A stretch of DNA of 64,000 nt from Acidobacteriaceae bacterium (GTDB taxonomy: Bacteria; Acidobacteriota; Terriglobia; Terriglobales; Acidobacteriaceae): positions 716 to 64,715 of the forward strand of contig DATAZC010000034.1 in assembly GCA_036272255.1 (NCBI GenBank). Reading direction: 5' to 3'. Shown in pieces: positions 1 through 25,235 of this stretch (positions are counted from its first letter, which is position 1; each line of letters starts with the position of its first letter). The position numbers were made by a program, and so were the translations under genes. Under the pieces are notes generated by a model. It saw only the letters and a program-made list of their open reading frames with translations. It was not told the origin of the DNA and did not search any database.

Positions 1-1
1 T

Positions 2-7813: not shown

Positions 7814-7876
7814 CCGGGACGCCGGGGCCCGGCTGTTATCGGGCGCCCGGCTGCAGAAGCAAGGTGACCTCCCGTG

Positions 7877-7920: not shown

Positions 7921-7940
7921 CAGCTGTGACGAGGATAGAA

Positions 7941-8927: not shown

Positions 8928-8946
8928 TCACGGGACACCGCTCATT

Positions 8947-9891
8947 ATGTCGAAATCGATCGTAGTGGTTGGAAGTCTGAATATGGATCTGGTAGCCCGC
9001 GTCGATCGGATTCCCGTTCGGGGCGAGACCATCATCGGGCTGGACTTCAAGACTTTTCCTGGGGGTAAGGGCGCCAATCAGGCCACCGCGGCCGCACTTC
9101 TTGGTGGGTCCGTGAAGATGATCGGCAAACTGGGCAGCGACCCATTCGCCGCCCAGCTGCGCAACAGCATGGAAAGCGCCGGTGTCGACGCTTCCTGTGT
9201 CGAGAACGTCGCGGGCCCTTCGGGGACCGCGCTCATTGAATCCTCCGTTGACGGCGAAAACAGTATTGTTGTCATCCCCGGCGCCAACGCACGTTTGCTG
9301 CCCGAGGATATTGACCGCTACAGCGCTGCGATCGAGCAGGCAGCACTGGTCCTGGCTCAACTCGAGATTCCCCCTGAGACCACCGAATACCTCGCGAGGA
9401 AAACCTGCAAGGCAGGTGTGCCGTTCATCCTCGATCCGGCGCCGGCTTACCCTTTGTCGCGCGATTTGCTTTCCCAGGTCACCTGGTTGACACCTAACGA
9501 GACCGAGAGCCTGCTGCTCCTCGGTCTCGATCCTGGCGGCGAAAGCTCTCTCCCGGTCGCGGAAACCGCGAATCGCCTTCTCGATATGGGTGTTCGCAAT
9601 GTCATCCTCAAACTCGGCGCGCGTGGAGTCTACCTGGCCGGACAGGATGTCGAGCCGGTGGCGGTTGCAGGGTGCGAGGTTAAAGTTGTCGACACCACCG
9701 GGGCCGGCGATGCCTTCAATGGAGCCTTTGCCTACGCCCTGGTCCATGCCGCAATGCCCGCAAGAGAAGCGGCAGAATTTGCCTGTGGAGCGGCGGCGTT
9801 GTCGGTGACACGCCCGGGCGCTCAATCCTCCATGCCGGGTCTGCGCGAATGCGAGCTGTTCCTCGATGAGTGCAGAGCCTTGCAACCATGA
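8947..9891 (+). CDS. rbsK: Ribokinase (PfkB family)
   Basis: VVVGSLNMDLV, FPGGKGANQA and the C-terminal VVDTTGAGDAFNGAF motif are classical ribokinase/PfkB signatures. Confidence 0.85.
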   Translation: MSKSIVVVGSLNMDLVARVDRIPVRGETIIGLDFKTFPGGKGANQATAAALLGGSVKMIGKLGSDPFAAQLRNSMESAGVDASCVENVAGPSGTALIESSVDGENSIVVIPGANARLLPEDIDRYSAAIEQAALVLAQLEIPPETTEYLARKTCKAGVPFILDPAPAYPLSRDLLSQVTWLTPNETESLLLLGLDPGGESSLPVAETANRLLDMGVRNVILKLGARGVYLAGQDVEPVAVAGCEVKVVDTTGAGDAFNGAFAYALVHAAMPAREAAEFACGAAALSVTRPGAQSSMPGLRECELFLDECRALQP

Positions 9892-9895
9892 AATC

Positions 9896-12007
9896 ATGCG
9901 CCGTCGCGACTTCTGCCGCCTGTCCGCCGCCGGTGCTTCCGCCTGGCTGACTCACCCCTTCGAGGCTTTTTGCCTAAGCTCCAATGCGTCGCCCTGGCCC
10001 TCTTCGCTTTACGCCAACAACCGCGCGCCTCTGCTGAACTCAAAATTTGTTCGCCTGCCACTCGGCAGCATCGCGCCCGCAGGATGGCTGAATGACCAGC
10101 TACATCTTCAGGCCACTGGCCTTACCGTTCGCCTTGGAGAATTGTGGGATGTTTTGCGAGAGTCCGCGTGGAAGGGCGATGTGGAAAAACATGTCACCCC
10201 GGAATGCTGTACGGCGCGCTTCGCTCCACGCTGGCTGGAAGGCGTCACGCTGCTGGCCGGCGTGTTGCATGACGAACGAATCCGCCGCATCACCGACCCC
10301 TACATGGAGTTCATCCTGCGTGTTACGGACTTGCCTTCTGTAACGCCGAGCCTGATCGCCTGGTTTCATCTGGGCCGATTCCTCCCCGACTATTACGAGT
10401 TGACTCACGATGAGCGTGCGCTCCGGTGCGCTGGCGCTATCCTTCGCTACGCCGATCAGGTCCACACTTCGAAAGACATGGCCGTAGTGGATCCCTCGCG
10501 GCTGGGCATGCTGCTCAATATCGGCTGGTGGCATTACAACCAGACCGGAGATACCGAGACCCTTGCGATTATCGATCGCTGTGCCCGGGACTGCGTGAAG
10601 GACTGGATGACCTGGTTTGTGAACTTCCCTCGCGATCCGCAATACTTCGCCCACTTTCCCGATCGCACAGCCGAGAAGCCCGGCGAAAGGCCCGAACGCT
10701 GGTCGCGGCACGGCGTCAACGTCACCCAGGCCATACAGTATCCACTTCTCTGGTTTCTGCGCTCGCACGACCCCACGAATATAGACAGCGTCCTGCAGGG
10801 TATTTCGAACCTCGATCAGGGCTACGGCCAGGTGGGCGGCCGTTGGAACGCGGATGAATGGCTCGCCTCGACTGACCCCGTGCAGGGCACCGAACTCTGC
10901 GACGTCGAGGAATTGCTGTTTTGCCTGGAGAATGGTCTGGCCGTCACGGGGATCACAGCGTTCGCGGACCGCGTCGAGCAGCTCATCTTCAATGCGTTTC
11001 CTGGAACCTGCACGGCGGATATGTGGGCTCACCAGTACGACCAGCAGGCGAACCAGGTCCTGGTCTCGGTCGCCGATCGGCCGTGGCACCTGAATGACCG
11101 GACCTCGAATATTTACGGCTTCGCTCCCAACTTCCCGTGCTGCCTCTCGAACATGCATTCGCCCTGGCCTCGATTTGTGCGGTCGATGTGGCTCGCGACA
11201 GCCGACTCCGGCGTGGCTGCCGTTCTGTACGGGCCGTGCAGAGTCGAGGCGCGGGTCGGAGAGAACCACAGTGTCATCATCGAAGAGCAGACTGACTACC
11301 CGTTCTCCGATCAAGTGCGTTTCGTCATTCGCACGGCGGAGCCAGTCTCCTTCCCGATCCACTTTCGCATCCCCGCCTGGTCTGACAGCGTTGATTGCTT
11401 TGTGAGTGGCAAACGCTTCGAAGGGCCGATCCGGGCTGGCGACTTTCTGCGCTTGCATCGGACATGGCGAGACGGAGATGTCGTCGATCTGAAGTTTCAC
11501 TTTAAAGTTCATACCGAGAACAGGCGAAACAATGCAGCTGCGATCGCCTGGGGGCCGCTCTACTTCGCGCTGCGGATCGGAGAATCCTTCCGCAGGATTG
11601 ATCTGCCCGGAATCCCGACTCCTGCAACATGTGTCAATTGGGAGGTGACTCCTACAACGCCATGGAACGTTGCATTGGCGATTGATCGGGACCATCCTGT
11701 GTGCGAGATGGCGCGCAATCCGATTGGATCGATGCCGTTCGCCCAAAAAGGTGAGCCCGTTCGGCCGCCCGAAGCAGACGACTTCTCTCCATGGCAGGGA
11801 GACGCGCCCCTGATACTTCGGGTCAACGCCAAAGAAGTGGCGGATTGGAAGATGAACGGCGCCAATGCCGCGTCTGTCCCTGTAAGTCCTGTCCGCTCGA
11901 AACCTGCCGGCAAGGTCGTCGAACTCATTCCTTATGGATGTTCACGCCTGCGAATTTCCGAGTTTCCCGTCGCCGCGCCTGAAGACGTGGAGACCCCGGG
12001 CGACTGA
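9896..12007 (+). CDS. GH127/DUF1680-like glycoside hydrolase (beta-L-arabinofuranosidase-like) with Tat-type leader
   Basis: MRRRDFCRLSAAGASAWL is a twin-arginine-like leader. An E-x-C element (GTELCDVEE) lies 80 aa upstream of a Cys-Cys element (NFPCCLSNMH), matching the Glu/Cys3 zinc site and Cys nucleophile layout known for GH127 HypBA1. Confidence 0.6.
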   Translation: MRRRDFCRLSAAGASAWLTHPFEAFCLSSNASPWPSSLYANNRAPLLNSKFVRLPLGSIAPAGWLNDQLHLQATGLTVRLGELWDVLRESAWKGDVEKHVTPECCTARFAPRWLEGVTLLAGVLHDERIRRITDPYMEFILRVTDLPSVTPSLIAWFHLGRFLPDYYELTHDERALRCAGAILRYADQVHTSKDMAVVDPSRLGMLLNIGWWHYNQTGDTETLAIIDRCARDCVKDWMTWFVNFPRDPQYFAHFPDRTAEKPGERPERWSRHGVNVTQAIQYPLLWFLRSHDPTNIDSVLQGISNLDQGYGQVGGRWNADEWLASTDPVQGTELCDVEELLFCLENGLAVTGITAFADRVEQLIFNAFPGTCTADMWAHQYDQQANQVLVSVADRPWHLNDRTSNIYGFAPNFPCCLSNMHSPWPRFVRSMWLATADSGVAAVLYGPCRVEARVGENHSVIIEEQTDYPFSDQVRFVIRTAEPVSFPIHFRIPAWSDSVDCFVSGKRFEGPIRAGDFLRLHRTWRDGDVVDLKFHFKVHTENRRNNAAAIAWGPLYFALRIGESFRRIDLPGIPTPATCVNWEVTPTTPWNVALAIDRDHPVCEMARNPIGSMPFAQKGEPVRPPEADDFSPWQGDAPLILRVNAKEVADWKMNGANAASVPVSPVRSKPAGKVVELIPYGCSRLRISEFPVAAPEDVETPGD

Positions 12008-12169
12008 ACGCGGCCGCACTTTGATTCGCGGACAACCCTGTGGTCATCGATCACGGGATCTTGTTGGTCGGACTGGAACACAACGGGATCCAGCTTTTAC
12101 GCAACGTCCTCTTTGGAGACCATGCGAGCGAAGCGCAGGGCAATCCGCGGCAAAAAGGCTCTGGAAACT

Positions 12170-12385
12170 TTACCCCCGCAAATGACTCTCCCCGTCGGAA
12201 GGCTGGGGTCGGGCGGCGATGCAGGCAGGGATGCTCACACAGGATGAGCTCCGGCGTTTGCGCCGAAGATAAATTTCAATGCCGACGAGAAACGCAATCA
12301 CGGCCAGAGCCACTATGCAGAAGAATTCCAGGGAGCCGTCGCCGTTGTCCGGAGAGAAACCAAAAATCCGCTCGATAAAATCCAT
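12170..12385 (-). CDS. Small (71 aa) single-pass membrane protein, unknown function
   Basis: ATG at 12385 is preceded by GGGAGGG. The sequence is MDFIERIFGFSPDNGDGSLEFFCIVALAVIAFLVGIEIYLRRKRR: a short N-terminal motif, one TM helix and a basic tail. It is divergent from the giant operon. The 241-aa ORF-track version is rejected. Confidence 0.5.
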   Translation of the reverse strand: MDFIERIFGFSPDNGDGSLEFFCIVALAVIAFLVGIEIYLRRKRRSSSCVSIPACIAARPQPSDGESHLRG

Positions 12386-12454
12386 GCGCCCTCCCGTGCA
12401 TGCTGCATAATACCCGGCCCCGCTGTTTCTGGAAAAAAGATTCTCTGTTTTTTG

Positions 12455-12484
12455 TTGACTGAGGTCGCGATGCCAGTGTAGAAA
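12455..12484 (+). promoter_or_regulatory. Possible promoter for the six-gene operon
   Basis: TTGACT (12455-12460), an 18-nt spacer, then TAGAAA (12479-12484), about 110 nt upstream of the gene A start. This is a by-eye match only. Confidence 0.2.
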
Positions 12485-12592
12485 TTCAAACTCTGTTTCG
12501 TTCCAGGTTTTCGACGCTCTCCCCGCTCTCATGCTGCGGCGCCGATAGACTCCCCTCTCGCCCGAAGTTTTACAAGACGGTAGGCAGGCTCC

Positions 12593-13243
12593 ATGAGCAC
12601 ACTCGGGTTCGTTGTGCTGATCTGTCTGTTCGTTCTGGTGCTGGGCATCTGCATCGGATTGCTGCTCGCGCTGTGGTGGAGGCGCAGGCATCCATCCCCT
12701 TTGCCGCCTCCACCGCCTCCACCGCCGTGTCCGCCAACCTACAAGATTCCCGATCAGCTCGGCGAGACCGATCTCACCACGCAAATCAGCGTGCGTCTCA
12801 TGGGCACAACGGCCAACGGAGTTCCACTGGCCGCCGGCACTGCTGCACCCACCAGCGTTATCTGGGTTGACCACGGCAATGAAGTCCTTGTGCATCTGGA
12901 CTCGACCGCGGTGCGCATTCTCGATCGCATGGTGTTGGTATCGGTCGATCTGGAGACCGACCAGACCGGCCGCACTCCGTTGATTTGCAGCTTCGCAGTC
13001 AGTGGCGCCGGCGAACTCGGTGGTCTCGCGGCGACCACCGACGAATTACCGCGCGGACTTGGATCACTCGCCTCGGCATGGGGCGCTCAGTTACAAACGG
13101 CGGTCTGGTCCACCCTGATGGGACTGGTGAATGATCACGCCTCGGAACGGAGCCTGACCCCGCGTGCACTCTCGGCCAGCGCCGGAACCCTCAGCCTGAA
13201 CGCAGGAGCTGCGCTCACCACAAGCCCGGGAGGCGCGGTATGA
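12593..13243 (+). CDS. Operon gene A: N-terminally membrane-anchored protein with polyproline linker, unknown function
   Basis: TM helix LGFVVLICLFVLVLGICIGLLLALWW, then RRRH, then PSPLPPPPPPPPCPP, then a ~160-aa globular part. Its stop overlaps the gene B start (ATGA, 13240-13243). Confidence 0.75.
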   Translation: MSTLGFVVLICLFVLVLGICIGLLLALWWRRRHPSPLPPPPPPPPCPPTYKIPDQLGETDLTTQISVRLMGTTANGVPLAAGTAAPTSVIWVDHGNEVLVHLDSTAVRILDRMVLVSVDLETDQTGRTPLICSFAVSGAGELGGLAATTDELPRGLGSLASAWGAQLQTAVWSTLMGLVNDHASERSLTPRALSASAGTLSLNAGAALTTSPGGAV

Positions 13244-16200
13244 GCGACGGCCTCGGTAACGAAGTTCTCGATCTGGGCAAGGCGATCGGCCTGTTCGACG
13301 ACAGCGGTAATCTCCAGCCGCATTGGTTCGAGAATCCTCTGGGCAACATCGAAAGCATCTTCACGACGGATACACAGCGAGCCGCGTTTCTACGCGTGCT
13401 CGACGCACTGCTTGCGCCGGTCCAGTTGCCTGATCTTCCCGCGAATGAAACCTGGCATCCGTTGTTCGGAGATCAGACACGCGGCAATGCCTATCTCACC
13501 GTCAACACCACCAACGGAGTCACCTTCGGCTTTGCCGGCGAATTCCACTCCAGCGATGGTCCGCCGCCGCTCGCATCACTCACAGCCCATCTGCCTCTGA
13601 TCAGCGTAAACGGCGGCAACGTGACTGCAGTGGCTGGCACAGCGAATGGCCCGCTCGATGTCAGCCTCCGCCTGCATCTCGGATTTACTTTCCCGGCCGA
13701 CCCCATCGGTCTCGATTCGGTGATCGTCACCGCCAGCCTGACCCCGCTGGGAGGCAGTACACCGGCAACTCTAACGGTCGATCTTGAAGGGCTGCAACTG
13801 GACGCTACCGGCCCGAAGAACATCACCCTGGATCCATCGAACATGGGTTCGGAGTCGGTCCACCTGATCATCGGCTTTATTCAGGAGCAGCTCACACGTC
13901 TCGCAGCAAACTCGGGTGAAGCCGGAGCCGTGACCGCACACCTGCTGCAGTTACTCGGTTTCGGCGACACCACGATTCCGCAGTTCCCGTTCACGCAGCT
14001 TGGAAACCCATCCGCCATTAACACCTGGTTCGCCTCACTCCTGCAGGGAGGAGCGTCGGCTCCGGTCGTGCATTGGCTGGGCCATCTCGCCGGTCTGATC
14101 GGCGTGAGCACTCCGACCGTAACCGGGTCGGGCACTCCAGCCGATCCATGGGTTGCGCCGGTGTTGCCGATCGGTACTGCGGCAGGCTCGGGCCTGAACA
14201 TTACTTTCGCCACCACAACCGTCTCGTCCACAACCTCGCTGCTCATCGGCCTGCAGGCTCGCGTCATTCCCGGGGGAGCGAACCCGCCGGTGCGCATTGA
14301 AGGCAACGCGATCATTGCCTCGATCCCGATCACCGGCACCGGGTCCGCTGCGGTATTGCCATCCGCCTCCGTTACCGCGATTGCTCCCGGAGCTGTCGGT
14401 GCGGGAGCGCTGGTCAGCAATGCGACGATCTCCGTCGAGTCCGTGCGCGCCGGATTTAACTGGACTGGCTCCGCACTGCAGCCGCTGCTCGAGCTGGATA
14501 CAGTCACTCTCACCCTTCTCGGCGCCACCAACAGCTACGACAAAATCGACCTGACCAATGCCGACAGCGTCGCCAGCGATGTCTCCACGGCTATTGGAAA
14601 TACGATTCGCGGATATTTCGGCACCACGGGTCCAGGCAGCGATCTGGCGGCGTTAGCCGGTATCATTCCGCCGGGGAACGATCCAGCGTCGCCGCATACG
14701 GTGCGGCTGCCGCAGTTCCTTGCCAACCCTTCCCAGGAAATCGGAGCGGTCCATCGCGCCGTCCTCCTCGACAATGCCCATCCCTGGTCGCACATGCTGG
14801 AGGAGATCGGCGGCCTGGTCGGGATCACTACGGCGGTCACCGGATCCGGAACGCGCACCGATCCATGGGTTCTTGAACTCGCTCCGCCTTCCACTTTTCA
14901 CATCGAGATCGCCGCGTGGAACGACCAGACCAGCGGCGTGGCCACCGACCCTCAGAAACTTCGCATCGGACTGCGCGCGTCCTTCGAGCAGGCTCCCGTC
15001 GACGTGTACTGGCTGGCTGAGCTGCTCGCCATCGATCTGCCGCAGTCCGGTTCGGGAACCATCTCGCTCATGGCTGGGCAGCACGCCCACGTCGGTGTCC
15101 AGCCCATCCCCACGATTCCGTCCGTTGGCGGCCTATCGCTCAGCATCGCGGACTTCGCCGCGGACATGACGTTTACGCCGGGCACTCCGTTGGCATGGAG
15201 TGCAGGTCTTCAGAACGTCTCCCTCACTTACGCGGGAAACACCATTAACGTTCCGTCGATTGGCTTCCCGCTCACGGCGCCGTTCGATGTTACGAATCCA
15301 GCCGCTATTGCCGCCGACTTTGGACTGACGATTCCAAATCTGGAGTTGCTGCTTCGCCTCATCCTGGCGCGAGCGCTGTCTTCGTGGGGCGGCATGCCGG
15401 CGTTCACACTCGCCGGACTCCTTGGAGTGCACGGCGGTCTCGACGGACTTTCTGCCGACTGGCCCGCGCTTGCCGATCCCGGAGCTGCCGGCTCGCTCCT
15501 GAGCGATCCATTCACAGCGCTGCGCAACTGGCTTGCGTCGGTGGCCACCGGGGTTTCCGCCGACGGCCAGGCTTTTCTGCCGCAGATCCTTCCATGGCTG
15601 CGCGGGCTTCTTGCTGACGCGCTGCCGGCTGCTCCGGGCAACCCACTCGACGGCTTCAGCCTGCCCATCAGCGGCTCCGGAACCTACGATGATCCGTGGG
15701 CACTCCCACTCACGACAACCGCTTCGACCAACGTCGATGCACTTGTGTGGCTGGAGCCTGCCGGTCCGCCGCCCGCCTGGGCTACGCCGCTGATCGCAGC
15801 AGCGGCCGGAGCGGCGAATTTCTCAACCCTGTTCCAGGTTGCGCAAAGTATCGCGCCCTTCGTGCCTGCGCTGAGCAACAATCTCTTCGGCAACGATCCG
15901 GGTCTGCTCGCCGATGCGCTGAACTCGCTGTCTTCTCTTTTCACCACTGGAGACGGTGTCGTTCCGCTGGCCTCACAAGTGCCCACCAGCACCAACTGGA
16001 CTGCCGGCACTACGCTCTCGAGCGCGCATCCCGCACAACCATCGGATCCGGCTGCCATCACGCAAATTCTTACTCAGGTCGACACTCTTGCCGGAGGCGC
16101 GGGTGGAGCCCGCACCGTTTTGCTGCTCGGTCCGGCATTCAGCGACCACACCATCTGGACGACGCTGCTGGCCGATCCCAACGTCCACGGCACAACGGCC

Positions 16201-19200
16201 GCCGCCACCAACTTCAACCTGCGTGTTCCCGGCCTCGATCCCTCCGCCGTTGACCTCACCACGGTCACCGCCCAGGCGTCCTGGTACAGCGCCGATCTCG
16301 GCGACGACGGAACCGGCAACCTCACATCGCTCACCGCACAAATCGCCCGGCTCGTCGCGCGCGTGCAACAGCTCAACGGAACCGGGCCGGTCACCCTGGT
16401 TGCTCACTCAACGGCCGGTGTCGCCGCTCTCGCCTTCACTGCCGCTAATCCGACCCTGGTGCAGGGCCTCATCACACTGGGCACGCCTCATCTTGGCGCA
16501 TCGCTGCCGTTTCTTTCCGACAGCCGTGTGGGCGACGCACTGCGCGTCCTTCAGATCCTGCGCCCGCAGATTGCCGGGAGTCCACTCCGCGATGCTCTCG
16601 ATTTCCTGCTGCTGGCACTGGATGGCTATCAACCCGCTGCCGCTGGAACGTTGCCTGTCGCATCGGCATTGCCGGCTGGATCGTTCCCCGCGCCCATCAC
16701 CGCGCCGGCCAGTATCGACTCGGGCGGACGCCCCGTCCTCGCCATCGGTAGCCAACTCGGCAGCCGTCTGCTCGACGCGCTGAAGCCCGCACTGTCGGCT
16801 CTCGCGAATACTGCTGCTAATCCCACAACCGCGCCGGCCGCCCCAACGCATCTTGCTTTCGGCGCGCGCGCGCACATGAACCTTGCCACATCAGCTGCGG
16901 GCAACGTCGCCGTAGACACAACCATGCGCGGCGATCTCTTCCAGTTCCCGCTGCACAGCGGAGCCGCAGCCCCGCCTCATCCCGCCCACGGCCTCTACGT
17001 GCGTGCGAAGCTCACCAATCCGAACGGCTGGCTGGTGGGCGCGTCGAGTTCGTTTGCCGGAACGGGCCTGCCGCCCGTCGATGTGCGCGTGCGCTGGGCT
17101 GAGATTGGCGCCGATATCACCACCTCAACCGGGGGACTGAAAGTCAACCCGGTCGTGAATTTGCACCAGGTTTCGTGGCACGGTCCGGTCGTCGATTCGG
17201 CTTCGTTCACCGATGCCAACGCCCAGGCTCTGCTGGGCGCAGTGCTGCAGACCATCAGCTCGCCGCTTCCCGCGTCCACGTCGCCGGCTGGCATTCTGCT
17301 GTCCACACTCCAAGCCCTCAATGTCGCGGTGGTCGATAGCCACGGTGGCATCGGTATCTCTGCGGACGCCTTCAGCGCCATCACCGCCGACGCAGCCGGA
17401 TATCTGTCGACACAACTCTCCTCCGCTCTGAACTCCGCAACGAGCTTTGCAGGATTCACCGCAACCACTGTGGTCATCCCCAGCCGCGGCGTCACCGCAA
17501 CGCCGGAATGGACGATGCCCATCAGCGGGCTGCCGCTGGAAATCTACCTGCTGCCGAATCCGTGGACTATCGGCCTGCGCACGAAATCAACCGGCAGCGG
17601 CCCGGCCAGCTGGACGATCGCACCCGACACCACCCTCACGATCGATGCGAGCGTCGTGATCCCCGCATTCACTCCCAGCCTCGACGCGACCTTTACCCTC
17701 GGCGCATTTTCGTTAGGCTGGTCCAGCACGAACTCGCAGCTCACAGTGAGCGCGCAACCCTGGCTGGCACCGCTTACGCTCATCCCGGCGCCCAGTGCAT
17801 CTGCGCTTGAAGCGGCGCTGAGCAATGCTCTCCCGCGCCTGCTTTTCTCCGGCGCCGCCTCCGCGGTTCTGGAGGCGCTGGCCGGTCCAGGTCTCAAGGT
17901 TGGCCCCATCGACACGTTCTTTACGTCCATGTCGTCGGTGCTCACCGAAGCTACCGCGCTTGGCAACAGCGCCGGCACCGGACTCGATTCCACCAAAATT
18001 ACCAAGCTCCTGCAGTTCATCGGCAACATCGCTGGATTGCCGGCGGGGCCGGGCCTCACGTTGCCTGGCAATCTACAACTCACAGCTACAGGCGCAGGAA
18101 CAAGCGCCGATCCGGTGAAGGTGCAACTGGCCACCACCGCGACCATCGGTGGAGTTCTCGATTTGAGCGGTGGTGTGTCGTTCGACCAACTAACGCACCC
18201 CAGCCCTACCGGCTCTCTGGCTCTCACCATTCCGCCATCGCCTGCGACGCTGCCAGGACCGTGGCAACAAGTCATCGTTGCTTTCGGCGTCAGCTCGGCC
18301 GGCGTTACTTTATCCATCACACCCGTCACCACGCCCACCCCGACACCGGCGATTCAGCTATTGCCCACCTTCAGCGGACTTGGAGCGCTCGCGGCGGGCG
18401 CTGAAGCGTTGTTGCTGCAGGCGCTCAACGCGCTCGTCGCGGCGATCGGTCCGTCGACGGTAATGGACCTGACGCTGGATGTTGCAACGGCCCTGGGCAT
18501 CTACGACAACGTCAATCACTTCAGCACGCATGGCGACGAACTCAAGGCGATGCTGACCGGAAGCTGGCTCAGCGGCTTTACCGCCGCGCAGCGTGGCAGC
18601 ATCGCCACCGCCATCGCCGGCCTCTTCAGCGGCGGCTCGCCGCTGGCAGGAACTCTGCCCGGCACCGTTTCGGCGGGCGCAGGGCCCAACGCCGGAGTCG
18701 TGACCTGGTCTCTTCCGCTCACCGGCGGCGACAGCGGCACCATCAACGTTGCGCTCGGTTGGGATGCGAGCGGTCCGACGGCTACCGTGGGCCTCGCCGA
18801 CGTTAAACTCGCCGACGGTGCGCTCGGCATCACGGCCTCCGGCGGCTATGTCGCTGGTTCTGTGGCTGTCACCGCAGCGTTGGGCGTTCATCTTGAAAGC
18901 GCCATTGGCATCCCTCTCGTTCCCACTCTTTCGCTCATCGAAAGCGGTGGCAACTTCCAGCTCGAGCTCTACCCACTGGCCAGCGGATCGGGAACCACGT
19001 TCACCACCGGCCCCATCACCATCGACTTCATTCCGCCGGCGCTGCATATGGCTGCGAGCGGTCCGGTCGCGCTGATCGAACAGTTCCTGGTGCCGCTGGT
19101 CGGCAATACTCTGCTCTCCACTACGGCGATCAAGAACGCCTTCGCCACCACGCTCTGGACTGGCGGCCCCACCGTGCAGTCGGTGCTCACCGGCGCGCAG

Positions 19201-22200
19201 ATTGCCGTCCCCAGCGGTGGCAGCCTGGTCATCAATCCCACATTCCCCAGCATCACCGCCGTGGTCACCGGCTTGCTCAGCACGCTTGCGACCGGAGTGA
19301 AACTGCCGCTGACGAGCACGCTGAATCTTTCCCTCGTCAACACCGCCAATCGTCTCGGTGTGCGCATTGCCGGCAGCCAGGATTTTCCCATTGGCGACTA
19401 CGACCTCAGCATGCTGTTTGGCGCGCCGGTTGCGTGGGGAACCGGCTTCGATTCCGGCGTGACGGTTTATCTGTTCGACGTTGCCGGTGGCAACTTCACC
19501 TTCAATCCTGGAATTCTCGCCGTCGGCCTGGGGCTTGGCCTTACCGGCCAGAACGATGCTCCGTTAGTGAACACCAACGGATTCCGCATCGGTGGCGTTC
19601 GCCTCTACACCTTCTTCTGGGGCGCATTCTCGGGCGGCTTCAGTCTGAGCGGGCTGGGCGTCGGCGCCGAGATCGATGCGCTGGGCTTGCCGCTTTCTCA
19701 GGCCACCGGACCCAATGTGGGTGGCAATAATCCCGTTGCGTCGAGCCTGCTCGGTGGTGGTGGCGATGGCGGCAACCGAGGCGGCGACACGCAACCTCCC
19801 AATCCCGCGGTCGATGTCGCGGCCTGGTACTGGACTGCACCGACTGACTCCAACCAGCCCACTCCGCCGGCCGGAGACAGCACCTTCCATATTCTCTTTT
19901 CCGGCAACGACCAGCCGATCTGGATTGGCGTCCACGCCCAACTCGGCCCCATCTACCTCGACCAGATCGGCATTATCCTCAACGGCAACACGTCAGCATC
20001 GCTGGTCCTCGACGCCACGGTGAAGGTTGGTCCATTGACCGGCCAGGTCGACGAGCTCGGCGTGACCATCCCCTTCAAGTCCCTCATGCATCCAGGCGAC
20101 TGGACACTCGATCTGAAAGGTCTCGCCCTCAGCTTCTCCACGCCAGGCATCACCATCGCGGGAGCGCTGCTGAAGAACGACAGCGGCGGTACGGTCGAGT
20201 ACGACGGTATGCTGCTGATCCAGATCACCGAGTTCGGTCTGGTCGCGGTTGGCGCTTACTCAAAACCCACAGACGCAGAGGGCGATTACACCAGCGTCTT
20301 CATCTTCGCTGGCCTCTTCATCATCATCGGCATTCCGCCGGTGATTGAAGTCGACGCTATCGGCGTCGGCTTCGGTTATAACCGCGAACTCATCGTGCCG
20401 GACGACATCAACCAGATTCCCAGCTTCATTCTGGTCGCGGCTCTCGACGATGGCGGCGCGCTCGCCAACGACCCCATGGGCGAGCTGATGCAGATCCGGG
20501 ACAGCATCCCGGCCAAACGCGGCAGCCTGTGGTTCGCCGTGGGTCTGCACGGCACGACGTTCGTCATCGTGCACGTCACAGCGATCGTCTATGTTGCGCT
20601 CGATCGCGGCGTCGAGATCGGCCTGCTCGGCGTGGCCCGCATGGCCATTCCTTCCGACGACACAGCTTTGGTCAGCGTGGAGCTGGCCCTCAAAGCGCGG
20701 TATTCCTCGGCCGATGGCACGCTTTCTATCCAGGCCCAGCTCACTTCCAACTCCTACATCTTCGATAAAGACTGCCAGCTCACCGGCGGCTTCGCCTACT
20801 TCATGTGGTTCCCGCAGGGCCAGTTCGTTCTGACCCTCGGCGGCTACAACCCGCACTTCATCAAGCCCACGCAGTTTCCCGACGTTCCGCGGCTTGGGTT
20901 CAACTGGGGCCTGCCCGTCGGCGCCACCATCAAAGGCGAAAACTACTTCGCGCTGACCAACACCTGCATCATGGCCGGCGGCCGTCTCGAAGTGACGTAC
21001 GGCATTTCGTGCGCCTACGTTTGGTTCACTGCGTATGCCGACTTTCTTATCTCGTGGGATCCGTTCTATTACGAGATCGACATCGGCGTTTCCGTCGGGG
21101 CTACGTTCTCGATCCAGGCTTGCTTCTGGGGATTCTGCGTCGGCGTCAGCGTCACGGTCTCACTCGGTGCCACGCTCACCATCGAAGGGCCGCCACTGCA
21201 CGGTACCGCCACCGTCGACCTCGCCATATGCAGCGTAACGGTGGCCTTTGGTTCTGACGCGAATCCGCAGCCGCCCTACATCACGGACTTCAATGTCTTC
21301 GCAACGAAATATTTGTTCGGCAACGATCCCAATGGCAACGCGTTCCGCGTGGACGTCCTCACCGGTCTGGTGCCGCCATCGCCGTCAGGTGCGGCTCCGG
21401 CTCCCGGCACTTCCGATAAACCCTGGCAGATGGTGAGCGAATTCTCCTTCCAGTGCGACACCAAAATGCCGGCCACCATCACCAACGACTTCGTCTTCGG
21501 CGATCAGGACCAGAGCGGCAACGTGCACTCCATCGATCTTGCTCCCATGAACAAGGAGACGGTGGGCACCAAAATGGTGGTGACGCTGTTCGGGCTCGAT
21601 GGCAATAACTGGACGGCGATCAGCGTTCAGAGCCCGAATTCCAATGCGGATTTCCAGATCGACACGCTGCACTGGATCATGACGCCGATTGTCGGCAAGG
21701 TTTCAGAAGCCACATGGCACTGGAACGATCCATCCAACATGCCGGCCGCTGCAAATACTGTTCCCGCAGTGGTGGGCCTCACGATCCAGGGATTCTGCTT
21801 CTTCGAAGGCAAGTCGGCTCTCATTCCCATTGCGAAGCTCTACGACACAGGCGATAGCCGCCCTCTGCCCTTCGCCACCGATTTCACGCTCACCTACGCT
21901 CAATACCAGGCGTACGGCGCATCGGCAGTGCAGCTGGCCGAACTCACCGCCGCTGCCGGATCGAACAGCACACTGCTGATCGCGAGCGCCATCACCACCG
22001 GCGCAAGCGGCTTCTTCGCCGATCAACGCAGCACTGCGGGACTGCCGGTGGGTGGCAACTCGCCGGTAGCCAATCTGGCACTACTCACCGATCGCTCAGC
22101 GCCACCCCTGGTCGTTCCAATCACGACGGGTCTGACCATGAAGCCCCCGGCCTTGCCTGCACCGCCGGTCATCGTTCGCCCACCGGTCATCCTGCCAGTC

Positions 22201-23412
22201 GCGCTGCAGCAGCCTCGCCTGCGTGCGGTGCTGCGCGGCTTGCCGCAGCCGGTGAGCGATGTGCCTGCGACTCTGCGCACCACCGTGACCAAAGTTGCTG
22301 CCGCTGCCGGAGGCACGCGCATGGCAGCGCCGCTGGCAAATGCTCTCGGCTCCAGCCTGATCCGCGTGAAAGCGCCTACCGCACCGGCCGCAACAAAGCT
22401 CTCGAAACCGGGGAACACGCTGCGGACGCCCGACCTCGGATGGACCTCCGGCACCGCGCATCAGCAGGAGATGACGGACGCACTCGCCGCCTTCCAGGGT
22501 AACGGCCTCACGATTCCCGCCGGCACTACACATATCTGGGATGTCCCGGCTGGTTCGCAGCAGGAAATGGTTATCACCGGCGATTCGGCCTTCCGGATTA
22601 CGTTCCTCACCCGCGGCGGCTCTGTTCTGGGTGACAGCGAGTATCCGCCCGCGCCGTCCACGGCACCGCAAACAACTGTGCAGCTGCCGGCCAACTGCGG
22701 CATGGTTTCGATCGATTGCCTCGGCAAACTTCCTGCAGGCTCTGTCTCCGTTGCCCCAGGCTTCGCCGCTGTTGCCTTCACCGCCGCGCCCGCCGGGAAG
22801 AAGACGGTGGCCGGATGGCAGGCCGGCAATTTGCTTCCGCAGGCTGGACCCACAACCATCCTTGGCCGCGGTTCCTGCCTGATGCTGCCGCAGACGCACA
22901 TTCCGTTGCGCAACCGCCAGGCGATTGCGCAGACCATGGTCCGCGTCTCCGACGCGGTCGCCGATCAGATCGGCACCGAGACCTGGCTTCCGACCTCAAT
23001 TGGTGTGGTCATGATTCTTCTCGATCTGCAGGACGCCACCGCTACGGCCGATGGCGATCTGGCCCTGAGCGCTCAGGGAGCCACGCTTTCGACGAATCCT
23101 GTTCGCATTCTCGGCGGACGTCGCCGCGCGTTGCTCTATGACGTGAGCAATGCCGATTCCACCGCAAGCCACATCATCATCGGCGTTGCCAGCGTTACCG
23201 GCTGGCGTCTCTCCGGTGTTGTGGGCATGCCCGGCAAAGCACAGGAGTGGGCCACCGACCTGCAGGGCAAAGTCCCGGAGCACATCGTCCCCGACGGCCC
23301 GCTTACGCCCGACGGCAGCATCTCCGTCCGCATGATCGCGAATCCATCTGCCCCGGCGAATCCAGCCGCGAAAACCGGCGCTAAGCCAGCCCTTACAGGA
23401 GCCGCCCGATGA
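13240..23412 (+). CDS. Operon gene B: giant 3390-aa protein, unknown function (repeat modules, lipase-like core, DUF6603-like block)
   Basis: A 10.2-kb uninterrupted ORF, far longer than any antisense artefact ORF in this window (maximum about 550 aa). GGGAGG lies 8 nt upstream, both ends have ATGA coupling, and codons are GC3-rich. There is no signal peptide. Confidence 0.85.
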   Translation: MSDGLGNEVLDLGKAIGLFDDSGNLQPHWFENPLGNIESIFTTDTQRAAFLRVLDALLAPVQLPDLPANETWHPLFGDQTRGNAYLTVNTTNGVTFGFAGEFHSSDGPPPLASLTAHLPLISVNGGNVTAVAGTANGPLDVSLRLHLGFTFPADPIGLDSVIVTASLTPLGGSTPATLTVDLEGLQLDATGPKNITLDPSNMGSESVHLIIGFIQEQLTRLAANSGEAGAVTAHLLQLLGFGDTTIPQFPFTQLGNPSAINTWFASLLQGGASAPVVHWLGHLAGLIGVSTPTVTGSGTPADPWVAPVLPIGTAAGSGLNITFATTTVSSTTSLLIGLQARVIPGGANPPVRIEGNAIIASIPITGTGSAAVLPSASVTAIAPGAVGAGALVSNATISVESVRAGFNWTGSALQPLLELDTVTLTLLGATNSYDKIDLTNADSVASDVSTAIGNTIRGYFGTTGPGSDLAALAGIIPPGNDPASPHTVRLPQFLANPSQEIGAVHRAVLLDNAHPWSHMLEEIGGLVGITTAVTGSGTRTDPWVLELAPPSTFHIEIAAWNDQTSGVATDPQKLRIGLRASFEQAPVDVYWLAELLAIDLPQSGSGTISLMAGQHAHVGVQPIPTIPSVGGLSLSIADFAADMTFTPGTPLAWSAGLQNVSLTYAGNTINVPSIGFPLTAPFDVTNPAAIAADFGLTIPNLELLLRLILARALSSWGGMPAFTLAGLLGVHGGLDGLSADWPALADPGAAGSLLSDPFTALRNWLASVATGVSADGQAFLPQILPWLRGLLADALPAAPGNPLDGFSLPISGSGTYDDPWALPLTTTASTNVDALVWLEPAGPPPAWATPLIAAAAGAANFSTLFQVAQSIAPFVPALSNNLFGNDPGLLADALNSLSSLFTTGDGVVPLASQVPTSTNWTAGTTLSSAHPAQPSDPAAITQILTQVDTLAGGAGGARTVLLLGPAFSDHTIWTTLLADPNVHGTTAAATNFNLRVPGLDPSAVDLTTVTAQASWYSADLGDDGTGNLTSLTAQIARLVARVQQLNGTGPVTLVAHSTAGVAALAFTAANPTLVQGLITLGTPHLGASLPFLSDSRVGDALRVLQILRPQIAGSPLRDALDFLLLALDGYQPAAAGTLPVASALPAGSFPAPITAPASIDSGGRPVLAIGSQLGSRLLDALKPALSALANTAANPTTAPAAPTHLAFGARAHMNLATSAAGNVAVDTTMRGDLFQFPLHSGAAAPPHPAHGLYVRAKLTNPNGWLVGASSSFAGTGLPPVDVRVRWAEIGADITTSTGGLKVNPVVNLHQVSWHGPVVDSASFTDANAQALLGAVLQTISSPLPASTSPAGILLSTLQALNVAVVDSHGGIGISADAFSAITADAAGYLSTQLSSALNSATSFAGFTATTVVIPSRGVTATPEWTMPISGLPLEIYLLPNPWTIGLRTKSTGSGPASWTIAPDTTLTIDASVVIPAFTPSLDATFTLGAFSLGWSSTNSQLTVSAQPWLAPLTLIPAPSASALEAALSNALPRLLFSGAASAVLEALAGPGLKVGPIDTFFTSMSSVLTEATALGNSAGTGLDSTKITKLLQFIGNIAGLPAGPGLTLPGNLQLTATGAGTSADPVKVQLATTATIGGVLDLSGGVSFDQLTHPSPTGSLALTIPPSPATLPGPWQQVIVAFGVSSAGVTLSITPVTTPTPTPAIQLLPTFSGLGALAAGAEALLLQALNALVAAIGPSTVMDLTLDVATALGIYDNVNHFSTHGDELKAMLTGSWLSGFTAAQRGSIATAIAGLFSGGSPLAGTLPGTVSAGAGPNAGVVTWSLPLTGGDSGTINVALGWDASGPTATVGLADVKLADGALGITASGGYVAGSVAVTAALGVHLESAIGIPLVPTLSLIESGGNFQLELYPLASGSGTTFTTGPITIDFIPPALHMAASGPVALIEQFLVPLVGNTLLSTTAIKNAFATTLWTGGPTVQSVLTGAQIAVPSGGSLVINPTFPSITAVVTGLLSTLATGVKLPLTSTLNLSLVNTANRLGVRIAGSQDFPIGDYDLSMLFGAPVAWGTGFDSGVTVYLFDVAGGNFTFNPGILAVGLGLGLTGQNDAPLVNTNGFRIGGVRLYTFFWGAFSGGFSLSGLGVGAEIDALGLPLSQATGPNVGGNNPVASSLLGGGGDGGNRGGDTQPPNPAVDVAAWYWTAPTDSNQPTPPAGDSTFHILFSGNDQPIWIGVHAQLGPIYLDQIGIILNGNTSASLVLDATVKVGPLTGQVDELGVTIPFKSLMHPGDWTLDLKGLALSFSTPGITIAGALLKNDSGGTVEYDGMLLIQITEFGLVAVGAYSKPTDAEGDYTSVFIFAGLFIIIGIPPVIEVDAIGVGFGYNRELIVPDDINQIPSFILVAALDDGGALANDPMGELMQIRDSIPAKRGSLWFAVGLHGTTFVIVHVTAIVYVALDRGVEIGLLGVARMAIPSDDTALVSVELALKARYSSADGTLSIQAQLTSNSYIFDKDCQLTGGFAYFMWFPQGQFVLTLGGYNPHFIKPTQFPDVPRLGFNWGLPVGATIKGENYFALTNTCIMAGGRLEVTYGISCAYVWFTAYADFLISWDPFYYEIDIGVSVGATFSIQACFWGFCVGVSVTVSLGATLTIEGPPLHGTATVDLAICSVTVAFGSDANPQPPYITDFNVFATKYLFGNDPNGNAFRVDVLTGLVPPSPSGAAPAPGTSDKPWQMVSEFSFQCDTKMPATITNDFVFGDQDQSGNVHSIDLAPMNKETVGTKMVVTLFGLDGNNWTAISVQSPNSNADFQIDTLHWIMTPIVGKVSEATWHWNDPSNMPAAANTVPAVVGLTIQGFCFFEGKSALIPIAKLYDTGDSRPLPFATDFTLTYAQYQAYGASAVQLAELTAAAGSNSTLLIASAITTGASGFFADQRSTAGLPVGGNSPVANLALLTDRSAPPLVVPITTGLTMKPPALPAPPVIVRPPVILPVALQQPRLRAVLRGLPQPVSDVPATLRTTVTKVAAAAGGTRMAAPLANALGSSLIRVKAPTAPAATKLSKPGNTLRTPDLGWTSGTAHQQEMTDALAAFQGNGLTIPAGTTHIWDVPAGSQQEMVITGDSAFRITFLTRGGSVLGDSEYPPAPSTAPQTTVQLPANCGMVSIDCLGKLPAGSVSVAPGFAAVAFTAAPAGKKTVAGWQAGNLLPQAGPTTILGRGSCLMLPQTHIPLRNRQAIAQTMVRVSDAVADQIGTETWLPTSIGVVMILLDLQDATATADGDLALSAQGATLSTNPVRILGGRRRALLYDVSNADSTASHIIIGVASVTGWRLSGVVGMPGKAQEWATDLQGKVPEHIVPDGPLTPDGSISVRMIANPSAPANPAAKTGAKPALTGAAR
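14026..15720 (+). repeat. Protein-level tandem modules (~240-280 aa) inside gene B marked by [VI][TS]GSGT-xx-DPW
   Basis: VTGSGTPADPW (14119-14151, aa 294), VTGSGTRTDPW (14836-14868, aa 533) and ISGSGTYDDPW (15667-15699, aa 810). Contexts are similar, e.g. W..HL.GL[IV]G upstream and L[LR]IGL[QR]A downstream in the first two. Confidence 0.5.
16111..16512 (+). other. Lipase/PGAP1-like alpha/beta-hydrolase core embedded in gene B
   Basis: VLLLGPAF is a strand plus oxyanion-loop analogue. PVTLVAHSTAGVAALAF is a nucleophile elbow with the Ser codon at 16408-16410 (aa 1057). LITLGTPHLGA is the typical post-nucleophile LGTPHxG strand of PGAP1/DUF676/class-2 lipases. Confidence 0.5.
19948..21270 (+). 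other. Hydrophobic/aromatic beta-rich block in gene B, resembling DUF6603 (recollection, unverified)
   Basis: Motifs: GGFAYFMWFPQGQFVLTLGGYNPHFIKPTQFPDVPRLGFNW, YVWFTAYADFLISWDPFYYEIDIGVSVGATF and the TM-like SVFIFAGLFIIIGIPPVIEV. A Gly-rich hinge at 19714-19806 precedes it. Confidence 0.45.
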
Positions 23413-25232
23413 GCACTGTTCCCACTCCCGCGCCCCCCATTGGATCGATGTACCTCTTCGATTGCGTTACGCCGCCGTTGGTCGATGGAAGCTATCGCAT
23501 CGACGTGGTCACCAACGTGACCTACGACAGCACGCAGGCGCCGCTTTCTTCCAACAGCGGCTACTTCGATATTCAGGGACCCCGCTTCACGCTGCCGGCT
23601 ACCGATGTCGCCGCCGTATATCCGCCGCGCAACGGCCACGGCGGCTTCGACGAGTACATCCCGCAAATCGTTCTTTCGCGGCGCACACTGCCCTGGGAGC
23701 GCCGCCTCACATCCGACCTGGGCCCCATTGGCACTCCCACCCGCGATCAATGGACTCCTCAGCCCGACCCCTTTCCTGCCGTTCAGAACGAGCCGCAGGA
23801 ATTTGGTCCGGCGCCCTGGCTCGCGCTGCTGCTTTTCCAGGAAGGCGAATACACACTGCACCAGAATGTCGCTCTCAAGAGTGTCGTTCCCGCCGACGTG
23901 TACGGGCGGCTTGAGGTCCCGGACGGCATCACCTGCGATTCCATCGAAGTGGAATACAGTTTGCTGGAGTCGGTCATTCCCAGCCTCGACGAGCTCACCC
24001 TGCTGGCCCATGTCCGTCAGGTCAACGTCAACGACAAGGAGCTGAACGCCGCATCCGGCGATGGCCTCTACGCGGTGCTGATGAGCAATCGCATCCCCGC
24101 GCCCAACGCGAAGTTCCGCGCCTGCCTGGTTTCGCTCGAGGAACGAAGGGATCTGGTCAAAGCGGATCCTCCACCAGTCGCCATGCCGATCTTCATCGGC
24201 GTTATCGAAAATCCCGCCATCGGCCAACTCGAAGCAGCCAAAGCAGCGCCACAGCAACCAGCCGCTGCTCAGGGGAATTCTGCGGGCGTTACCAACATGG
24301 GCTCGGGCACGCCGCAACAGACGCTGATCAATCCCATCGGCAGCACGGTGCTCGCCACGGTCGCCGATCGCAACGTCGCCCCGTCGGTCAACTTCGCACA
24401 GGCCCCGCCTTTTCACATCTTCATCGGGACCAAACAGCTGGTCCTGCTGCACAGCTGGCAATTTGAATGCACCGGCGTAGGAACCTTCCGCGACTACGTG
24501 CAGCGCATCAACGTGTCCACGATGGGTACCGTCGAAGAGCAGGGCCATCCTCCGGTCATTGACACAGGCCACATCCCCATGACGGTCATGGATCGATCCG
24601 GCGTGCAGGAAGATGTGTGGTATCGCGGCCCCTTCGTTCCCATGCCGCTGACCCGCGATCCGCTCACGTATCACAGCGCCGACCAGTGCCGTCGTGTCAC
24701 TCCCGAAACCGGCGCTGAAGATATCAGCTACGCCGCAGCCTTCGAGTGTGGACGCCTGATGGCCGCCGCCGATCCTCGGCTCGGGCAGGAGTTGATGCGA
24801 TGGCGGCGTGAGCCTTACCGACAGTCGGTGCGGACCGATTCGCTGCTCGCGATTCAGGCCGCTATCCCCCTAAACCAGACACTCGATATTCATCAACCGG
24901 TTGTCCCGGTTGTAGCGGCCAATGCGGCGGGCAGCATCGTTACAGGCGTCGAGTTTGTCGGTGACAAATACGGCATTGGATCGGTGAGCGGTGCCCCGGG
25001 CCTCAATCCCGCACAACTACAACAGGCCTGGAACCTTTCCAGCGTCGCCGAAGCAACCGCGATTCTTGGCGGCGAAGCCGGGGCCACAGGGGCCGTGGTC
25101 ACCGCTCCTGCTCAGACGGTGCGCACGGCAACCACTCTCGACCAAGTGGTCGCCGATACCGCTTCACTCAACCGCCTGCAATCCGCTCGCGACCAGGCAC
25201 TGAACAGTGTGCAGCTGCAAACAGGGAAATAA
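23409..25232 (+). CDS. Operon gene C: 607-aa protein, unknown function
   Basis: AGGAG lies 8 nt upstream and its ATG overlaps the stop of gene B (ATGA). I recognised no motif. A Gln/Ala-rich linker lies near 24220-24320. Confidence 0.8.
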   Translation: MSTVPTPAPPIGSMYLFDCVTPPLVDGSYRIDVVTNVTYDSTQAPLSSNSGYFDIQGPRFTLPATDVAAVYPPRNGHGGFDEYIPQIVLSRRTLPWERRLTSDLGPIGTPTRDQWTPQPDPFPAVQNEPQEFGPAPWLALLLFQEGEYTLHQNVALKSVVPADVYGRLEVPDGITCDSIEVEYSLLESVIPSLDELTLLAHVRQVNVNDKELNAASGDGLYAVLMSNRIPAPNAKFRACLVSLEERRDLVKADPPPVAMPIFIGVIENPAIGQLEAAKAAPQQPAAAQGNSAGVTNMGSGTPQQTLINPIGSTVLATVADRNVAPSVNFAQAPPFHIFIGTKQLVLLHSWQFECTGVGTFRDYVQRINVSTMGTVEEQGHPPVIDTGHIPMTVMDRSGVQEDVWYRGPFVPMPLTRDPLTYHSADQCRRVTPETGAEDISYAAAFECGRLMAAADPRLGQELMRWRREPYRQSVRTDSLLAIQAAIPLNQTLDIHQPVVPVVAANAAGSIVTGVEFVGDKYGIGSVSGAPGLNPAQLQQAWNLSSVAEATAILGGEAGATGAVVTAPAQTVRTATTLDQVVADTASLNRLQSARDQALNSVQLQTGK

Positions 25233-25235
25233 CCA

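Follow-up and report, generated by a model that had tools for sequence, protein, structure and literature searches.

What is a lipase-like motif doing deep inside a bacterial protein of 3,390 residues, and could it belong to a working enzyme? The question is raised by a stretch of 64,000 nucleotides from an Acidobacteriaceae bacterium (assembly GCA_036272255.1, contig DATAZC010000034.1, positions 716 to 64,715; hereafter the window), in which a first-pass annotation had flagged positions 16111-16512 of the forward strand as an α/β-hydrolase core with a non-canonical nucleophile elbow, buried in a giant open reading frame (ORF) that lies in a cassette of five genes. The flagged segment is almost certainly part of a genuine lipase-type α/β-hydrolase domain, and the sequence and structural comparisons described below suggest that its catalytic residues may well follow one another in an order that differs from that of the lipases to which it is related.

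The coordinates, the motifs and the numbering of the putative nucleophile, Ser1057 (codon TCA), were given correctly in that annotation, and the segment does lie in frame in the 3,390-residue ORF. Its in-frame translation, RTVLLLGPAFSDH...PVTLVAHSTAGVAALAF...LITLGTPHLGASLPF, encloses VLLLGPAF from residue 960, AHSTAG from residue 1055 and LGTPHLG from residue 1080, separated by ~90 and then by ~11-14 residues, close to the ~85 and ~14 residues first proposed. The reverse strand of 16111-16512 holds a stop codon and no comparable feature. The flagged 134 residues are exceeded by the domain as a whole, which comprises ~385 residues (Table 1).

Kinship with lipases is apparent from several kinds of comparison. 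A phmmer search with residues 900-1300 against the PDB placed the Burkholderia and Pseudomonas lipases on top (1qge, E 8e-4; 1tah, 1cvl, 1ex9), aligning GHSQGG with AHSTAG and TIGTPHRGS with TLGTPHLGA. A five-sequence HMMER profile gave E 2e-7 against 1qge and 7e-6 against 3lip, in an alignment that spans the elbow and the lid region and continues to a point just before β7. Comparison of profiles by hhalign, in which 100 family sequences were set against 121 lipases (the B. cepacia lipase, whose query sequence is identical to PDB 3lip/1hqd, and 120 homologues), returned 98% probability and E 1.5e-13. By hhalign, VLLLGPAF is also aligned with the lipase IILVHGLT. The domain is a distant homologue of the bacterial family I.1/I.2 'true' lipases, with ~20% identity to family I members.

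The Pfam families Abhydrolase_1, PGAP1, Hydrolase_4 and Palm_thioest match the elbow-to-β6 stretch only, with scores near or below gathering. Abhydrolase_1 (PF00561; gathering score 25.8 bits) scored 20.7 bits in the full protein, 25.1-26.0 bits in the excised domain and 28.1 bits in one homologue (P0102), and its match covers only ~60 of 245 profile positions. The first-pass annotation had compared the order of motifs with PGAP1-like, DUF676 and class-2 lipases; the fold class has stood, and the choice of nearest relatives has given way to the family I.1/I.2 lipases. PGAP1-like (PF07819; gathering 24.3 bits) reached 17.0-21.7 bits in the window and at most 23.7 bits in homologues, DUF676 (PF05057; gathering 20.3 bits) reached 14.1 bits and in one homologue only, and Lipase_2 (PF01674) gave no match at E up to 10. 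The weak PGAP1 and DUF676 matches, to the same elbow-to-β6 stretch, span only ~50-90 residues. Much the same set (Abhydrolase_1, PGAP1, Palm_thioest and DUF676) is precomputed for true Burkholderia lipases.

Since an AlphaFold model of residues 805-1200, computed with 24 diverse family members, is confident (mean predicted local distance difference test score (pLDDT) 89.6; predicted template modelling score (pTM) 0.88), this stretch of ~390 residues appears to fold as one unit; an earlier run on residues 780-1400 with 13 close fragments (pLDDT 61.5) is superseded. By DSSP, the model displays a hairpin (820-836), helices (845-903), a turn with D905, a strand (920-922), a helix opened by H930, a further helix (937-950) and a Gly-rich linker (951-958), followed by strands at 960-964 (VLLLG), 1015-1019 and 1051-1056, Ser1057, helix 1058-1069, strand 1074-1080, helices 1090-1128, strand 1166-1169 and helix 1177-1193. 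The flagged segment is β3, the oxyanion loop, β4, β5, the Ser elbow and β6 of this domain.

A Foldseek search of the PDB ranked the B. glumae lipase 1qge_D first (E 1.7e-4, probability 1.0), followed by 1tah, 2es4, the B. stabilis and B. cepacia lipases, P. aeruginosa LipA, a Streptomyces lipase and Bacillus LipA, the probability being 1.0 for 1qge, 1tah, 2es4, 7cof, 1ex9 and 1i6w. The first 45 of the 50 matches listed are α/β hydrolases at probabilities of 0.90-1.00, with one lower-ranked match at 0.57, and the viral library (BFVD) also returned α/β hydrolases, PGAP1-like giant-virus proteins included. Structure prediction, which the first-pass annotation had proposed as a check of the fold, came out in favour of an α/β hydrolase, and the lipase-type core of strand and oxyanion loop, elbow and following strand is supported by phmmer, the HMMER profile, hhalign and Foldseek alike. 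The TM-scores are modest (0.25-0.49). In Bacillus LipA, the sequential alignments take in 131-143 of 179 residues; in the fragment 1qge_D, which to judge by its 219 residues ends before Asp264 and His286, they extend over 185 columns. Modest scores and partial coverage of this kind are expected if the Asp/His end of the domain does not lie where a sequential aligner looks for it.

The first-pass annotation had noted Ala at both Gly positions of G-x-S-x-G in the elbow, and had called the second of these substitutions unusual. The substitutions are real, and the elbow is less odd than was supposed. Among 100 representatives, whose identity to the window ranges from 27 to 65%, the position two before the nucleophile (Nu-2) is Ala in 74% and Gly in 23%, Nu-1 (His1056) is His in 95%, the nucleophile (Ser1057) is Ser in 93% and Gly in 6%, Nu+1 is Thr in 59% and Tyr in 12%, Nu+2 is Ala in 75% and Gly in only 3%, and Nu+3 (Gly1060) is Gly in 92%; because of these counts, A-H-S-T-A-G is to be seen as the norm of the family and not as a local oddity. 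In the loop that follows, Pro1083 is conserved in 97% and His1084 in only 63%. The general elbow rule of Ollis and colleagues (1992) is said to be small-x-Nu-x-small-small, and to judge from the sequence A1055, A1059 and G1060 fit it, though they depart from G-x-S-x-G. In the model, Ser1057 is found in a confident strand-turn-helix. The members in which Gly replaces Ser (P0064, P0100, P0111, P0113, P0118 and P0132) carry the motif G-H-G-x-x-G and share 37-60% mutual identity, and the domain of this lineage has probably been inactivated or repurposed.

The acid and the His had been expected within residues ~940-1250, an expectation that fails, as no well-conserved candidates are found there. 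In α/β hydrolases generally, the catalytic acid (Asp or Glu) is located at the C-terminal end of β7 or β6 (PMC11878206), and the catalytic His in the loop between β8 and helix αF (PMC11878206, section 2.7). No acid follows β6 (G1081, T1082) or β7 (G1170, S1171) in the present family, where these positions are Gly, Ala, Ser or Thr throughout (G/A at 1170 and G/S/A at 1171). The strongly conserved residues lie upstream of the flagged segment, ~130-150 residues N-terminal to Ser1057: in the 100 representatives D905, its neighbour G906 and H930 are each conserved in 99%, and in an alignment of 76 sequences over residues 747-1450 no Asp or His other than D905 (100%), H930 (98%) and H1056 (96%) reaches a conservation of 85%. 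The downstream candidates D1128 (76%) and H1204 (75%) are less conserved in the same 76 sequences.

D905 and H930 belong to a module of the fold (residues 896-950) composed of a turn, S/G-D905-G-V-V-P, the strand 920-922 (proposed β8), H930 and the helix 937-950 (proposed αF), all modelled at a pLDDT of 92-98. The turn resembles the N-D264-G-V-V of the lipase, and the spacing from Asp to His is 25 residues here versus 22 in the lipase (D264-H286). In the model, H930 follows a strand and opens a helix, which would correspond to the β8-His-αF context of a catalytic His. The order of the candidate triad is D905, H930, S1057, and not nucleophile-acid-His.

We propose that Ser1057 would act as the nucleophile, partnered by His930 and Asp905, and that the module of Asp turn, strand, His and helix would be the equivalent of the lipase C-terminal end (Asp264, β8, His286, αF). 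As the module appears to occupy the canonical β8/His position but lies N-terminal to the Ser, a circularly permuted fold is implied, with Asp-His-Ser instead of Ser-Asp-His, and this is the simplest reading of the placement of D905 and H930. The chain break would fall between β7 and the acid loop, and the linker AGGAGGAR would join the proposed αF to β3 as the new connection arising from the permutation. A domain of this kind would hydrolyse ester bonds in a lipid-like substrate and would serve as the effector, supplying catalysis to the giant protein and to the conserved cassette as a whole. The homology, fold class, conservation and limits of the domain, and the distribution of its family, are direct observations; we infer, as a fairly probable reading, that the domain is active and that its triad is a permuted one made up of D905, H930 and S1057.

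Two kinds of comparison bear on the position of the module. Aligned alone by hhalign, the profile of the Asp/His module lands on residues 257-301 of the lipase profile with a score of 16.1, pairing D905 with D264, TTLSS with QVLST (proposed β8) and AAITQIL with DEINQLL (proposed αF). Six of 200 column shuffles (mean 10.9 +/- 2.2) reach 16.1, and the ten shuffles that score highest all align elsewhere than on lipase residues 257-301; the reversed module scores 11.8, at another location. The longer stretch 805-955 aligns to lipase residues 204-302 (P 0.16), a hint that the strand 831-836 could also correspond to β7; residues 805-895 and 1176-1330 gave no significant alignment to the lipase profile.

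The second is a mean-field direct coupling analysis (DCA) of 130 unique sequences (effective number of sequences, Meff, ~113), drawn from the best 150 of ~1,200 family matches. Because single pairs lay within shuffle noise, block-level ranks were used. The block formed by residues 923-927 and 1168-1172, the proposed β8 and β7, ranks 17 of 41,041 (z 4.5), and lower values link the His loop with the oxyanion loop (z 2.4) and the β6 loop (z 2.5) and the Asp loop with the β6 loop (z 2.0); the oxyanion loop 966-969 and the elbow 1057-1060, taken as a positive control, gave z 3.0. Motif, secondary structure, a weak profile match and block covariation together support placing the module at the canonical β8/His position.

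Several observations weigh against the permuted triad or against its proposed role. Re-ordering the sequence canonically, with the core first and then the Asp/His module, brought no gain in score in HMMER against the PDB, in Pfam or in hhalign, so that sequence alone is insufficient to prove a permutation. The module alone, searched with HMMER against the PDB, retrieved no lipase and gave spurious endoglucanases at E 0.1. Its placement by hhalign is marginal (P ~0.03-0.06) and leaves His930 five residues off His286, a consequence of a difference in loop length. The single-pair DCA scores are no better than those of column-shuffled controls, and the block-level ranks take no account of phylogeny. 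Pro965 is located in the oxyanion loop where lipases have the Gly that precedes the oxyanion residue. D905 and H930 are retained in the six representatives of 100 in which Gly replaces Ser, so that the conservation of this pair may have a cause independent of the Ser. Lastly, no signal peptide was seen in the five cassette proteins, and no known secretion partner was found.

The rival that survives these considerations best is a module that has kept the lipase fold and is catalytically dead, its role being that of a scaffold, of a structural spacer or of a module that binds lipids or ligands. It would be in keeping with an elbow that is not G-x-S-x-G, with the lack of an acid at the canonical positions after β6 and β7, with Pro965, with the replacement of Ser by Gly in members that keep the rest of the domain, and with Pfam scores that remain below threshold. 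We nonetheless consider it unlikely, as Ser1057 is kept in 93% of representatives as diverged as these, as Ser1057, D905, H930 and H1056 are among the best-conserved polar positions over 700 aligned residues, and as the elbow is a confident strand-turn-helix in which Ala, Ala and Gly are acceptable small residues.

Alternatively, the domain could be an active α/β hydrolase of a kind other than a lipase. It might be a thioesterase, it might cleave peptides or process the giant protein itself, or it might be an acyltransferase whose target is that protein or a cell-wall polymer. An identity of only ~20% to lipases leaves room for this, the substrate not being readable from the fold, and Foldseek lists thioesterases, BioH, the KAI2/D14 receptors and epoxide hydrolases at similar E-values; a motif, G-x-G...D-P-W, that recurs three times in the protein and once marks the start of the domain also speaks for it. 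The best matches in both sequence and structure, the lid region included, are nevertheless consistently family I lipases, and the Pfam families matched are the same as those matched by the true Burkholderia lipases, which makes such an activity fairly unlikely. The lipid or membrane chemistry to which the first-pass annotation pointed is likewise what we infer from homology, and does not count as a result.

That the domain is an active Ser hydrolase in canonical order, using Asp1128 ('ALDGY') and His1204 ('APTH') or a Ser-His dyad, with D905 and H930 conserved on other grounds, appears improbable. Canonical order is the rule of the superfamily, D1128 and H1204 are conserved in 76% and 75%, and the Ser-to-Gly clade has retained D905 and H930. 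Against this, neither D1128 nor H1204 is conserved to the degree of the Ser, D1128 ends the lid helices instead of following β6 or β7, and the next, β-rich domain is predicted to begin with H1204; D905 and H930, for their part, are conserved in 98-100% and sit in a strand-His-helix context, and covariation sets residues 923-934 beside β7, the oxyanion loop and the β6 loop. A chance order of motifs in a protein of low complexity, rich in Ala, Gly, Leu and Thr, is hardly credible despite the compositional bias and the sub-threshold Pfam matches of the single sequence, for the profile E-values (2e-7 and 1.5e-13), the confident α/β-hydrolase model and the Foldseek matches have already refuted it, and the motifs are conserved in more than 100 diverged clusters.

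Compared with known enzymes, the domain finds its best match in sequence and structure in the family I.1/I.2 lipases (3lip, 1qge/1tah/1cvl, 1ex9), with which it shares β3, an x-H-S-x-x-G elbow, a T-x-G-T-P-H-x-G loop, the lid region and the segment preceding β7. In the classification of Arpigny and Jaeger, families I.1 and I.2 are characterized by G-H-S-x-G, the order Ser-Asp-His, a disulfide and a Lif foldase, and family I lipases bear a Ca2+ site of two Asp residues near the catalytic Asp and His. The present domain differs in its candidate order, Asp-His-Ser, and in having A-H-S-T-A-G where they have G-H-S-x-G-G. Unlike these secreted enzymes of 30 kDa, it is an internal domain of a 3,390-residue protein in which no signal peptide was seen. 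No Cys column is conserved to at least 70% in the domain, as opposed to the conserved disulfide pair of family I, and no gene for a Lif foldase lies alongside, the neighbouring genes being without a Pfam match. Because score thresholds or defining features failed in each case, the domain is not a member of family I, PGAP1, DUF676 or Lipase_2.

The textbook case of a natural circular permutant of the α/β-hydrolase fold is the polyhydroxybutyrate depolymerase of Penicillium funiculosum, in which β1-β4 have moved from the N- to the C-terminus (PMC3531081, PMC13552848). The depolymerase and the present domain are alike as natural α/β hydrolases with a permuted strand order, in our case a proposed one. 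On our reading the depolymerase keeps the order Ser-Asp-His intact, whereas here Asp-β8-His-αF would have moved N-terminally; the permutation proposed here would thus be a different one, and no sequence relationship between the two was detectable.

A functional analogy is offered by the ABH (alpha/beta hydrolase) effector domain of the Vibrio cholerae MARTX toxin, a phospholipase A1 specific for phosphatidylinositol 3-phosphate (PI3P; PMC4640098), which is also a lipase-type module inside a bacterial protein of several thousand residues. Of the features that mark MARTX toxins, namely RTX repeats, a cysteine protease domain and type I secretion, Pfam revealed none here, and there is no sign that the domain is released from the giant protein. 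By analogy with the MARTX ABH domain, attack on membranes or lipids by the lipase-like domain would be a reasonable guess (PMC4640098).

Table 1. Positions in the window of the giant ORF, its lipase-like domain and the other genes of the cassette
Feature	Position	Strand	Basis or remark
Gene A, 216 aa, N-terminal transmembrane helix and poly-Pro	12593-13243	+	stop overlaps start of giant ORF
Giant ORF, 3,390 aa, DUF6603 protein	13240-23412	+	ORF list and translation
VTGSGTPADPW, aa 296	14125-14160	+	
VTGSGTRTDPW, aa 535	14842-14877	+	
ISGSGTYDDPW, aa 812, at start of lipase-like domain	15673-15708	+	
Whole lipase-like α/β-hydrolase domain, aa ~812-1195	15673-16824	+	AlphaFold model, Foldseek
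Asp/His module, aa 896-950	15925-16089	+	conservation, DSSP, hhalign, covariation
Asp905 codon GAC, proposed catalytic acid	15952-15954	+	
His930 codon CAT, proposed catalytic base	16027-16029	+	
Gly/Ala-rich linker AGGAGGAR, aa 951-958	16090-16113	+	no regular secondary structure in model
β3 VLLLG and oxyanion loop P-A-F-S, aa 960-968	16117-16143	+	hhalign; strand 960-964 in model
β5 and elbow V-T-L-V-A-H-S1057-T-A-G	16390-16419	+	strand 1051-1056, helix from 1058, pLDDT ~96; aligned to GHSQGG
Ser1057 codon, putative nucleophile	16408-16410	+	
β6 and loop L-G-T-P-H-L-G-A, aa 1074-1087	16459-16500	+	aligned to lipase TIGTPHRGS
Helical lid-like insertion, aa ~1090-1128	16507-16623	+	model helices; profile alignment through lipase lid 125-185
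Proposed β7 V-L-A-I-G-S, aa 1166-1171, no terminal acid	16735-16752	+	strand 1166-1169 in model; covaries with 923-927
DUF6603 region, aa 2231-2691	19930-21312	+	422.8 bits, E 2e-126 (PF20248, threshold 27 bits)
Gene B, 607 aa	23409-25232	+	start overlaps stop of giant ORF
Gene C, 352 aa	25236-26294	+	
Gene D, 1,368 aa	26284-30390	+	

The giant protein is biased in composition (A 12.9%, L 11.7%, G 10.9%, T 9.6%), and outside the DUF6603 region and the lipase-like domain it has no match in Pfam, NCBIfam, PHROGs or PADLOC and no significant match in the PDB. Its sole strongly hydrophobic window, residues 2350-2377 (YTSVFIFAGLFIIIGIPPVIEV; ~20287-20370), lies inside DUF6603 and could either insert into a membrane or be part of a buried core. 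The motif G-x-G-x(3-5)-D-P-W occurs three times in the ORF, and at the same three positions in most full-length members of the family, with G812, G814, P819, W820 and W837 conserved in 96-100%; the motif may be the signature of repeated modules, or else a site of processing or binding.

The family to which the giant protein belongs is large. An exhaustive search over 1.84 billion representative sequences yielded 1,230 clusters at E<1e-3, a number that falls to 118 at E<1e-30 (clusters at 50% identity), from soil Acidobacteriota, Actinomycetota and Gemmatimonadota; known carriers include Acidobacteriaceae, Terracidiphilus, Silvibacterium, Gemmatimonadales, Solirubrobacteraceae, Mycobacteriales and cultured Kribbella strains, and one contig of a metagenome-assembled Acidobacteriaceae genome is ~90% identical to the window. 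Most members are 2,700-3,600 residues long, carry the domain at residues ~830-1200 and match the profile end to end in the native order. Over 3,421 columns, full-length homologues are up to 40% identical, and the distant members P0138, P0144 and P0102 keep DUF6603 near residues 2100-2900; the NCBI name of one homologue is 'DUF6603 domain-containing protein'. One member, P0092 (5,296 residues), is longer by ~2,000 residues and has its lipase-like domain at the usual place (residues 873-1163). A word-indexed protein search returned only 14-16 fragments of less than 800 residues, many with frameshift tails, so that the family seems much smaller than it really is. Many public assemblies split the giant gene into pieces of 200-1,500 residues with out-of-frame tails, as exemplified by P0001, P0002, P0006, P0007 and P0014 and by positions 8480-17559 of locus L001. 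Searches of the literature for DUF6603, PF20248 and DUF3892 returned nothing relevant.

The giant ORF is the second gene of a compact cassette, A-giant-B-C-D (12593-30390), whose start and stop codons overlap or abut. The order giant-B-C-D is kept in a related Acidobacteriaceae locus (L001) and in loci at 40% (L039) and 28% identity (L041), and thus extends into other phyla down to the last of these values; gene A is kept in L001 and L039 and not in L041. Genes A-D have no match in Pfam, NCBIfam, PHROGs or PADLOC, and the products of B, C and D gave nothing significant against the PDB. The five proteins are uniformly acidic and contain little Lys, and no enzyme family other than the lipase-like one was detected among them, which bears out the first-pass view that the domain is the only enzyme-like element of the operon. 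An identity as a phage, an extracellular contractile injection system (eCIS), a Tc-toxin, an RTX/MARTX toxin or a known defence system was rejected for want of any match.

The genes on either side look unrelated to the cassette. Upstream (4466 to 12007) are a TonB-dependent-type outer-membrane barrel with a CarboxypepD_reg domain, a sugar/ureide permease-like transporter and a GH127-like protein, and downstream (30482-33643) is a protein with BNR/sortilin and ASH/Ig-like domains; neither the BNR/ASH protein nor the upstream genes of sugar use are conserved beside homologous cassettes. The stretch ~14000-34000 has a G+C fraction of 0.60-0.65 and a GC skew of -0.10 to -0.17, the flanks being ~0.58-0.60 with a skew near zero; this composition could reflect proteins rich in Ala, Gly, Pro and Thr, or horizontal acquisition. 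Beside the cassette of L041 (positions 1-7500) are found rve and HTH_Tnp_1 transposase/integrase genes, a caspase-like Peptidase_C14 and a faint match to an M10 peptidase, which hints that the cassette can sit in mobile or conflict-related islands. It is a quite doubtful extension of these findings that the giant protein together with B, C and D, joined by A in some lineages, forms an undescribed multi-protein machine of soil bacteria, perhaps for defence or inter-microbial attack, with the permuted lipase, directed at membrane lipids, as its only enzyme; were this true, it would constitute a new class of cellular system.

To our knowledge, the order nucleophile-acid-His is treated as nearly invariant in the much-studied α/β-hydrolase fold. 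If the permuted triad is real, this widespread bacterial family with the order Asp-His-Ser would represent a second and different natural permutation after that of the fungal polyhydroxybutyrate depolymerase, and the first α/β-hydrolase family with its acid/His module ahead of the nucleophile. It would also follow that annotation dependent on the order of the sequence, such as that by Pfam and HMMER, under-calls domains of this kind, the profile matches here being near or below threshold. Much of the interest lies in the uncharacterised family of giant proteins itself: for a large and unannotated family of ~3,000-residue proteins, the lipase-like domain is the only functional handle, and into a conserved cassette of four to five genes on which there is no literature it offers the most practical way in.

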